DNA of 64,000 bases, taken from the NCBI RefSeq assembly GCF_016026235.1, contig NZ_CP065613.1; one strand, 5' to 3'. The first letter of the stretch is position 1. Each line of letters starts with the position of its first letter. The stretch is from Escherichia coli (GTDB lineage: Bacteria > Pseudomonadota > Gammaproteobacteria > Enterobacterales > Enterobacteriaceae). This document shows, piece by piece, positions 46,901 through 49,900 of this stretch. Made by a program: the position numbers.

Positions 46901-49900
46901 ACAAATAAAACTATAACATGGTGAAATTAATGAAAAAAAACACAGATGATGGGGCTAAAATTTACACACCACTTACCCTAAAGCTTTATGACTGGTGGGT
47001 TTTGGGAGTATCAAATCGGCTTGCATGGGGATGTCCTACAAAGGAACACCTTCTTCCACACTTTCTGGAACATTTAGGTAACAACCATCTGGATATTGGT
47101 GTTGGAACTGGGTTTTACCTTACTCACGTACCTGAGAGTAGTCTGATATCTTTAATGGATTTGAACGAAGCTAGCCTGAACGCGGCATCTACAAGGGCTG
47201 GGGAATCAAAAATTAAACATAAAATTAGCCATGATGTTTTTGAACCTTATCCTGCGGCGTTACATGGTCAATTTGATTCCATTTCCATGTTTTACCTTCT
47301 TCACTGCCTGCCTGGAAATATATCTACAAAAAGCTGTGTAATACGCAATGCGGCGCAGGCCTTAACTGATGATGGAACTCTATACGGAGCCACAATTCTT
47401 GGCGATGGAGTTGTGCACAATAGCTTCGGTCAAAAACTGATGCGCATTTACAATCAGAAAGGCATCTTTTCAAACACAAAAGATTCCGAAGAAGGCTTAA
47501 CACATATACTCTCAGAGCATTTCGAGAATGTTAAAACCAAGGTTCAAGGTACTGTAGTAATGTTTTCCGCTTCAGGGAAAAAATAGCATCCAACCGCAGC
47601 ACGTTCTTGCTTAAGACGTGCTACGGTTTCCTTTACGATTTGGGGTTGCGACTTTACCTCTATTGATAATGCATTCCGGCAGAACGTTCAAATATGAACG
47701 TACGATATTTAACTAACCGAAAAACAAAATATAGCACAGGCGAGACATTTACCATCTAAGAAAATAGTATCGTTTTTTTACAGTTAAATCAACATCACTT
47801 CCTTAAAATGAAAACAATAAATTTCAATCCTGAAACATTTTATTTCAGCTTATTATTTCCCAGTATCACATTTTATCAGGATATCCTTCTGCGAGGTTAT
47901 TATGCTTCCTGTAAATAATCCCCCCTATCCACTGGAAACGTCTCTTTTTACAGAACTACATCAATCGACAATGTTCACAATAATTATCTCTCCGAATGGG
48001 TTGAATGGACTAAAAACAGCATTTCCGGAGAAAACAGGGAAACTGCTTTTACCCGGCTCCAATTATGTCTGGAGAACAGTGAAACATCGTTGGACTTATC
48101 TTGTTTAGGTCTCAGATCTCTACCACGATTGCCTGACAATCTTGATGAAATTAATGTAAGCAATAACCAACTATCAATGCTCCCGAGCTACCAAGGGCAT
48201 TGAAAGAGCTGAATGCAAGCAGTAATCAATTATCTGCACTTCCTGAATTACCAGTGTCGCTGGAATATATAAATGTGAGTGATAACCATTTGTTCGCACT
48301 TCCTGAATTACCTGCGTCACTAGAATATATTAATGTAAGTGACAATCACCTGTCTGTACTTCCGAGGTTACCAATGTCATTGGAATTACTTGATGCAGCC
48401 AGAAATGCTTTGGAAGTAATACCAGATTTTCCAGAAAGAGATGATCATATTATAAGAATATTCTGGCTTAATCAGAACCGGATCACGGCAATTCCGGAAA
48501 GCATACTTGGCCTCAGTTCTGATAGCGTTGTCAATCTTAGAGAAAATCAACTATCTCCCAGAATAATGCAAACTTTGTTACAACAAACCGCCCAACCGGA
48601 CTACCACGGCCCACGGATTTACTTCTCCATGAGTGACGGACAACAGAATACACTCCATCGCCCCCTGGCTGATGCCGTGACAGCATGGTTCCCGGAAAAC
48701 AAACAATCTGATGTATCACAGATATGGCATGCTTTTGAACATGAAGAGCACGCCAACACCTTTTCCGCGTTCCTTGACCGCCTTTCCGATACCGTCTCTG
48801 CACGCAATACCTCCGGATTCCGTGAACAGGTCGCTGCATGGCTGGAAAAACTCAGTGCCTCTGCGGAGCTTCGACAGCAGTCTTTCGCTGTTGCTGCTGA
48901 TGCCACTGAGAGCTGTGAGGACCGTGTCGCGCTCACATGGAACAATCTCCGGAAAACCCTCCTGGTCCATCAGGCATCAGAAGGCCTTTTCGATAATGAT
49001 ACCGGCGCTCTGCTCTCCCTGGGCAGGGAAATGTTCCGCCTCGAAATTCTGGAGGACATTGCCAGGGATAAAGTCAGAACTCTCCATTTTGTGGATGAGA
49101 TAGAAGTCTACCTGGCCTTCCAGACCATGCTCGCAGAGAAACTTCAGCTCTCCACTGCCGTGAAGGAAATGCGTTTCTATGGCGTGTCGGGAGTGACAGC
49201 AAATGACCTCCGCACTGCCGAAGCCATGGTCAGAAGCCGTGAAGAGAATGAATTTACGGACTGGTTCTCCCTCTGGGGACCATGGCATGCTGTACTGAAG
49301 CGTACGGAAGCTGACCGCTGGGCGCTGGCAGAAGAGCAGAAATATGAGATGCTGGAGAATGAGTACCCTCAGAGGGTGGCTGACCGGCTGAAAGCATCAG
49401 GTCTGAGCGGTGATGCGGATGCGGAGAGGGAAGCCGGTGCACAGGTGATGCGTGAGACTGAACAGCAGATTTACCGTCAGCTGACTGACGAGGTACTGGC
49501 CCTGCGATTGCCTGAAAACGGCTCACAACTGCACCATTCATAATCACATCGCATAAACCACAGACCGGACTGACTCCGGAAAAACAGAGGCCCGCCCCCG
49601 GGCCTCCCCGGATTCATCCGTTTCCCTGTTCAGCCTGACAGCACGCCCCGGCGGCCGGATGACAGACTCCGCTTCGGTAAGCAAAGCGGTCTTCTGTGAT
49701 TCCGCCAGTTGCGGCTTATTCATTACTCAACGTCAAACGCCCGAATTGAAGCCAAATCATCCAGACCGCTCAGCTCCTCTTTCATTTCACGCTGACGGCG
49801 ATAAATCTCATCGTTGCGATCGACCTGCGCCTGCACCATTGCTGCCGCCAGTTCTTCCAGTTCCGGCATCGACAGTTTCACCTGCTGATTATCGGCATCG

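Follow-up and report, generated by a model that had tools for sequence, protein, structure and literature searches.

The stretch of DNA analysed here (hereafter, the window) comprises 64,000 nt of contig NZ_CP065613.1 from Escherichia coli (assembly GCF_016026235.1) and includes, close to the end of a prophage, a gene for a class I methyltransferase dependent on S-adenosylmethionine (SAM). The gene occupies an AT-rich segment (GC content of 0.40-0.42 over 46800-47600, versus 0.51-0.58 in the tail genes on the right) between a remnant of the tail fibre assembly gene tfa and the effector gene ipaH (Table 1), as a preliminary description of the locus had stated. From the first ATG, the open reading frame (ORF) at 46918-47586 encodes 222 amino acids with the SAM motif LDIGVGTGF at residues 58-66, again in agreement with that description. 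Comparative evidence identifies this ORF as a genuine gene and not a chance reading frame, since the profile of the PHROG family phrog_2132 (labelled ‘unknown function’) matches it from end to end (E = 7.9e-157; residues 5-222 against positions 1-218 of 218), 2296 homologues were found, an alignment of 32 sequences (Enterobacterales, Aeromonas, and Shewanella) has 57 invariant columns, and most substitutions between E. coli copies are synonymous. The true start is probably the ATG at 46930, giving a protein of 218 aa, because residue M5 is the first residue of every homologue aligned, a Shine-Dalgarno-like GGTGA (46920-46924) stands 5 nt 5' of this codon, the copy of strain CFT073 is annotated in RefSeq with 218 aa, and a predicted -10 hexamer abuts the ATG at 46918. 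Protein lengths in the family range from 218 to 224 aa; the window protein is full length and therefore not a fragment of a larger gene.

Comparison with other genomes identifies the gene as the intact form of ybcY, a known E. coli gene, and not as a novelty of Shigella. The K-12 copy (b0562, a pseudogene for a putative SAM-dependent methyltransferase) is frameshifted and lies in prophage DLP12 between two tfa remnants, beside appY, ompT, and nohD. Across the cassette that carries the gene, K-12 and the window share 97% DNA identity and have the upstream tfa remnant, the promoter hexamers, and the hairpin in common; the setting at both loci is a divergent tfa remnant upstream and a convergent tfa sequence or hairpin downstream. 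The window differs from K-12 in its intact frame, in the site of the prophage (a tRNA-Ser gene beside zinT versus argU for DLP12), and in the insertion of ipaH 3' of the hairpin. The closest database entries are phrog_2132 and the RefSeq proteins WP_000239881.1 and WP_000742375.1; the window protein is identical to the former of the two as found in the enteroinvasive E. coli (EIEC) strain CFSAN029787 and in O157:H7 strain 8368. The gene is thus already on record: it is annotated as ‘class I SAM-dependent methyltransferase’ in thousands of genomes, and its K-12 name is decades old. Passing mentions, and no functional study, were found in the literature on ybcY, its RefSeq proteins, and phrog_2132. 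On the opposite strand in K-12, RefSeq places a 45-aa ‘nucleocapsid protein’ across the 3' end of ybcY and the hairpin (locus L002, 5612-5749), which looks like an annotation artefact.

Of 5426 complete E. coli genomes, 3831 (~70%) contain DNA with an identity of at least 95% to the gene, with 4875 copies in this genome set and up to four per genome; such DNA also occurs in 14 sequenced lambdoid phages (e.g., 2G7b, ev243, and PhiR26_1). Non-pathogenic E. coli are thus among the carriers, as DLP12 ybcY exemplifies, but there the gene is prophage cargo at other loci and not a housekeeping gene at this one. All that is left of the decayed DLP12 in strains CFT073 and ChlosBP-23-1 is an integrase remnant, a tfa remnant, the intact 218-aa methyltransferase gene, and ompT, which argues for retention of the gene by the host.

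Table 1. Annotated features at the prophage end that carries the methyltransferase gene
Feature	Coordinates	Strand	Remarks
tRNA-Ser gene, 3' part; attachment-site remnant, prophage end	46183..46245	-	sequence reads as tRNA-Ser 3' half
Hairpin copy 1, CCAACCGCAGCACG...CGGTTT	46538..46585	.	just downstream of tfa remnant
tfa remnant, 89-aa ORF, C-terminal part of tail fibre assembly protein	46592..46861	-	phrog_2341 at 2.2e-58
Methyltransferase promoter region, predicted	46862..46917	+	two candidate hexamer pairs
Promoter candidate 2	TTAACC 46862-46867, 16 nt, CATAAT 46884-46889	+	consensus scan
Promoter candidate 1	TTGATT 46889-46894, 17 nt, TATAAC 46912-46917	+	read in window sequence
Methyltransferase gene, intact ybcY orthologue (phrog_2132)	46918..47586	+	class I SAM-dependent methyltransferase, identical to WP_000239881.1
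Hairpin copy 2, cassette end	47592..47628	.	directly after methyltransferase stop codon
CssrB, chromosome-encoded Shigella small RNA (Rfam RF02799)	47595..47774	-	230 bits vs gathering score 76
MxiE box, GTATCGTTTTTTTACAG	47767..47783	+	perfect match, 118 bp upstream of ipaH ATG
ipaH (E3 ubiquitin ligase effector), frame broken	47902..49543	+	cargo between cassette and phage tail-fibre genes
DUF4376-type distal protein	49723-50346	-	prophage tail-fibre gene
Tail fibre	50297-51562	-	prophage tail-fibre gene

The tfa remnant, the methyltransferase gene, and the hairpin after its stop codon form a conserved unit of ~1 kb (~46615-47628), as established by comparison with K-12, O157, CFT073, MS6198, ChlosBP-23-1, and phage 2G7b. 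Homology to K-12, O157, CFT073, MS6198, and 2G7b ends at 47626-47629. The first hairpin copy belongs to a direct repeat (D1) shared with 47587-47607 at a spacing of 1049 bp, and other genomes have a further copy of the tfa 3' end (100-144 bp) on the right side of the gene. Direct repeats thus delimit the cassette, which phages could acquire or lose by recombining with one another. An invertible segment, an idea suggested by the flanking tfa sequences, was rejected, as both tfa copies have the same orientation and no invertase accompanies them. Beyond the family listed in Table 1, the tfa remnant matches the tfa families phrog_105, 188, and 136, and it is annotated as partial tfa at the near-identical EIEC locus (99.8% identity with the window over 46485-50400). 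The Rfam family IS009, an E. coli RNA candidate, also matches it (46635-46838, minus strand, 129 bits against a gathering score of 117), so the remnant may be transcribed as a non-coding RNA.

Predicted transcription signals stand on both sides of the gene. The hexamers of promoter candidate 1 are those given for K-12 ybcY, for which a TTGATT-17-TATAAC promoter was predicted in the listed divergent spacer between ybcY and tfaX; this spacer is bound by the RpoD holoenzyme and by H-NS in genomic systematic evolution of ligands by exponential enrichment (PMC3946193). Downstream, the hairpin at 47592-47628 (RNA folding energy of -19.8 kcal/mol, z = -2.64) is likely the terminator of the methyltransferase gene.

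The tail-fibre genes to the right (49723..51562, minus strand), which match phrog_1141 (3.8e-89) and phrog_2636 (2.2e-203) and are annotated likewise in EIEC, constitute the end of the late operon, against which the methyltransferase gene is oriented. Its location is of the same type as that of the lambdoid morons found at the tail-fibre or attachment-site end, such as lom, bor, ompT, and effector genes including ipaH. Like them, it has its own predicted promoter and terminator, runs opposite to the late genes, is AT-rich, and is H-NS bound; unlike them, it encodes a cytoplasmic enzyme and not a surface protein or a secreted effector. On the left, homology to the E. coli chromosome extends from zinT to 46245 and ends inside an annotated tRNA-Ser gene; ARAGORN detected no whole tRNA within 40000-64000. 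A related prophage end at the same site is seen in 401 E. coli genomes, which share at least 80% of 45515-46600. In E. coli 19KM1803, the zinT/tRNA-Ser site is likewise occupied by a lambdoid prophage; the hairpin and the tfa end are present there, the methyltransferase gene and ipaH are not. In MS6198, the cassette occurs without ipaH. The slot after the hairpin is occupied by ipaH in the window and in EIEC, by yciG, yciF, yciE, and a Mn catalase gene in O157, and is empty in K-12 and MS6198.

The link to ipaH and virulence implied by the preliminary description is not supported. A genome-wide comparison found ipaH in 9 of the 5426 E. coli genomes, versus 3831 for the methyltransferase gene; it is absent from more than 99% of the genomes with this gene, and the cassette occurs without it in commensal, uropathogenic, and O157 strains and in free phages. 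Within its N-terminal leucine-rich-repeat region the ipaH frame changes at least twice between 47902 and 48200: the ORF that begins with the ATG at 47902 ends at 48108, and from 48200 the main ORF continues in a different frame. The 99.8% identical EIEC copy is annotated as ‘ipaHe, frameshifted’, and the window copy is probably a pseudogene. A scan of the window with a consensus that we take to be that of the MxiE regulon gave a single match, with 0.01 expected by chance. No MxiE box was found upstream of the methyltransferase gene in the window; the sole box is located 3' of its stop codon and therefore does not control it. Given the genome counts, the position of the box, and the broken ipaH frame, the association of the two genes is an accident of insertion with no functional pairing; ipaH and its MxiE box are a later, unrelated insertion just beyond the hairpin. 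CssrB, matched over positions 1-180 of the 180-position model, is oriented convergently to the methyltransferase gene. The 5' end of this RNA overlaps the MxiE box on the opposite strand, and its 3' hairpin is the one after the methyltransferase stop codon, so that the small RNA and the gene converge on one hairpin.

The encoded protein has the characteristic features of class I methyltransferases. Motif I of this class, (D/E)xGxGxG, is present as LDIGVGTG at residues 58-65, and D81, invariant in the 32 homologues, corresponds to the acidic residue at the end of strand 2, the SAM ribose-binding position. The AlphaFold model (predicted local distance difference test of 90.7, predicted template modelling score of 0.87) contains seven strands in a class I Rossmann sheet with helices. 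Pfam yielded generic small-molecule methyltransferase domains only. Both the modelled fold and the homology resemble small-molecule and natural-product methyltransferases, apparently including the fungal alpha-pyrone O-methyltransferases discussed below. The earlier characterization as orphan phage cargo with a small molecule or a protein as target is retained in part (phage cargo, orphan, small-molecule type), but for a known gene, found in the majority of E. coli, non-pathogens included, and without relation to ipaH. The absence of DNA-methyltransferase features was likewise confirmed: a motif search of the window protein detected neither motif IV, (D/N/S)PP(Y/F/W), nor PCQ plus ENV, no Pfam family of DNA methyltransferases matches it, and the single 218-aa domain of the model leaves no room for a target-recognition domain. 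Neither is there a restriction or specificity gene within several kb, the neighbours being the tfa remnant, ipaH, and the tail-fibre genes.

The nearest solved structures by sequence are the juvenile hormone acid O-methyltransferase JHAMT (7ebs/7ec0; profile E of 1.7e-5) and UbiG (4kdr; 1e-3). Both enzymes O-methylate lipophilic isoprenoid-type substrates and share with the window protein only ~20% identity over the SAM-binding core. Assignment to a quinone pathway was not obtained, as the UbiE/UbiG-related RquA model scored 16.9 bits against a cut-off of 175 and no NCBIfam model of UbiE or UbiG matched at E up to 10. More generally, all matches to curated NCBIfam function models (CpaM, RquA, and PmtA) fell far under the cut-off and were rejected, and PADLOC returned one marginal match only. 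In the Foldseek ranking of PDB structures, a phosphatidylethanolamine (PE) N-methyltransferase, JHAMT, and phosphoethanolamine methyltransferases are at the top; these matches form a plateau, which picks out no substrate class.

Relatives of the protein are widespread. A profile search of 1.84 billion cluster representatives retrieved 421 clusters at E < 1e-30, with no functional name among those sampled, and a relative is present in at least 412 of 100,044 species genomes. Gene neighbourhoods were compared for the 80 best loci, which represent 26 genus-level taxa. No neighbour is conserved across genera; the recurrent ones are generic short-chain dehydrogenase/reductase and LysR genes or reflect clade-specific synteny, and tfa sequences flank family members in Escherichia only. 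Outside Escherichia, the gene therefore stands alone on the chromosome, and its capture was the work of a single phage lineage. Its function is not peculiar to phage biology, and the methyltransferase probably needs no partner enzyme.

Several individual neighbourhoods deserve mention. A distant member on a metagenome contig is fused to a Peptidase_U32-like N-terminal domain (locus L011, 1611-10575) and shares a gene cluster with LuxE, NifU, cysteine desulfurase, a U32 gene, a flavin adenine dinucleotide-dependent oxidoreductase, and an MMPL transporter; this cluster looks like an uncharacterised pathway for oxygen-independent hydroxylation and methylation of a lipid-like compound. In the prophage of O157:H7 strain 8368 (L017, 4001-7380), yciG, yciF, yciE, and a Mn catalase gene come next after the methyltransferase gene, and in Pseudomonas (loci L022-L025; L022, 2925-5681) the homologue follows genes for a DUF892 (YciE/F-like) protein, a Mn catalase, and a DUF6388 protein on the same strand. 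The O157 and Pseudomonas Mn catalases are 67% identical. This lead was dropped, since only two P. cichorii loci of the 80 carry part of the module (the Mn catalase in one, the YciE/DUF892 gene in the other), and the association with a stationary-phase stress module may be a coincidence or a weak link. In one Pseudomonas clade (L087-L101 and L111), the homologue is preceded at a distance of 110-270 bp by a same-strand gene for a 685-aa methyl-accepting chemotaxis-type protein, with the same placement in Janthinobacterium lividum and matching metagenome contigs (L026-L028); in Erwinia (L105), it is encoded near the homologue on the opposite strand.

The most informative result on the type of enzyme is the Foldseek search of AFDB50. 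It retrieved relatives at 35-47% identity from Klebsiella, Pseudomonas, Vibrio, Legionella, Streptomyces, Mycolicibacterium, and many fungi, among them ‘Methyltransferase verB’ (36% identity, template modelling score of 0.90, E of 3.6e-26). O-Methyltransferase activity was demonstrated for DovB, which is the counterpart of VerB, and AurB, CtvB, and AstB O-methylate an alpha-pyrone hydroxyl (PMC12312803). These fungal enzymes of the aurovertin (AurB), citreoviridin (CtvB), asteltoxin (AstB), and verrucosidin (VerB/DovB) pathways are similar in size to the window protein (228 aa for CtvB) and act on the acidic enol hydroxyl of a hydrophobic polyketide. Translation of the published ci-ctvB primers gives the peptides CLRKAANR and SISLMYVL, and these align with two motifs of the family; judged from the primers only, SLxAASxR and SISMFYLLHCLPG are common to the family and ci-CtvB. 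The fungal alpha-pyrone O-methyltransferases VerB/DovB, AurB, and CtvB appear to be the only characterised relatives of the family. Their genes are clustered with those for a polyketide synthase, a flavin monooxygenase, and a hydrolase. Neither the window nor the 80 bacterial loci showed a polyketide synthase or any other biosynthetic or tailoring neighbour, and the substrate is therefore probably unlike the fungal ones and not made by adjacent genes.

We consider it fairly probable that this intact ybcY orthologue is a self-transcribed prophage moron and that its product is a cytoplasmic class I enzyme methylating, likely at oxygen, a small hydrophobic metabolite. According to this proposal, the gene would have been captured once by a lambdoid phage lineage of Escherichia and Shigella and would travel as the ~1 kb moron cassette at the tail-fibre end of prophages. 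In the lysogen, a sigma-70 promoter of its own, within H-NS-bound, AT-rich DNA, would drive its transcription in the direction opposite to the late operon, the transcript ending at the hairpin after the stop codon. The enzyme, acting alone, would use SAM to methylate an acidic hydroxyl, be it that of an enol, a phenol, or possibly a carboxyl, on a compound that is small and rather hydrophobic, and this methylation may modify or detoxify a metabolite, signal, or antibiotic to the benefit of the host. A bolder version seems to us doubtful: YbcY would be a natural-product-type O-methyltransferase of lysogenic conversion, a functional kind new for phages, which lambdoid prophages have brought to ~70% of E. 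coli and which modifies a diffusible small molecule with a gain in gut fitness. Its targets might be, e.g., a pyrone-, quinolone-, or pyrazinone-type antibiotic or signal of competitors or of the host, which would be inactivated or re-tuned.

A number of observations weigh against the proposed small-molecule moron. Within the plateau of fold matches, tRNA enzymes (CmoA, the cmo5U34 methyltransferase, Trm9, and METTL6) score almost like small-molecule enzymes, and the median isoelectric point of the family (8.9) implies a charge compatible with an RNA or membrane substrate. O-, N-, C-, and S-methylation are not distinguishable from the sequence here, and the link to VerB consists of a structure-search match and a UniProt label. 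A literature search found no biochemical or genetic study of any bacterial family member. The K-12 copy is a pseudogene, and the gene is therefore dispensable in the laboratory. As to its expression, the promoter and terminator are predictions only, and a pattern scan called no intrinsic terminator at the 47592-47628 hairpin.

Targets other than a small molecule are each less likely. An RNA methyltransferase, modifying tRNA or rRNA and altering host translation in the lysogen, would suit the basic charge and the scores of the RNA enzymes in the fold search, but dozens of small-molecule enzymes match at least as well, those close relatives that have a name are polyketide O-methyltransferases, the setting of the U32 fusion resembles a lipid or metabolite pathway, and the window protein has no RNA-binding domain; we regard this as unlikely. 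Even less probable, in our view, is a PmtA- or PMT-like N-methyltransferase for phospholipids or phospho-bases, acting on the PE head groups of the host membrane. The top Foldseek match in the PDB is indeed a 207-aa PE N-methyltransferase (8ys9, E of 3.2e-12), followed by the Plasmodium phosphoethanolamine methyltransferases (PfPMT), and the basic isoelectric point and the aromatic N-terminal helix would fit a membrane substrate. In the hhalign alignment with PfPMT, TDDGAKIY is paired with TDEGVKVY and H129 with the catalytic H132, but the probability of this alignment is only 34%, and the PfPMT-type Tyr-x7-Tyr/His catalytic match was rejected, since Y16 aligns with Y27 and the catalytic Tyr19 has no conserved counterpart. 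The NCBIfam model for PmtA (NF045882) reached 15.6 bits against a cut-off of 390, and, to our knowledge, there is no report of methylated PE or of phosphatidylcholine from E. coli, despite the presence of the gene in 70% of strains.

A protein methyltransferase with a function linked to the adjacent genes, e.g., modification of tail fibres or cooperation with the IpaH effector or the type III secretion system, is suggested by the position between tail-fibre assembly sequences and ipaH, but we hold it to be very improbable: outside Escherichia the family is never found beside tfa genes, nearly all carrier genomes are devoid of ipaH, and the gene lies upstream, not downstream, of the MxiE box and is transcribed against the late operon. 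The least probable target of all is DNA, methylated for anti-restriction or epigenetic regulation, for, although phages often carry orphan DNA methyltransferases and the protein has a Rossmann SAM-binding motif, the characteristic features of such enzymes are absent.

The gene is among the most widespread prophage morons of E. coli and is intact even where the prophage is nearly gone. It says nothing specific about Shigella virulence. The anatomy of its cassette reveals a slot for the insertion of lambdoid cargo, in which ipaH or the stress module of yciGFE and Mn catalase is placed just beyond the hairpin. The family spans Proteobacteria to fungi, and its characterised members are polyketide O-methyltransferases only. 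Discovery of the substrate would give a function to a gene of most E. coli and Shigella and could reveal a phage-borne modification of small molecules.

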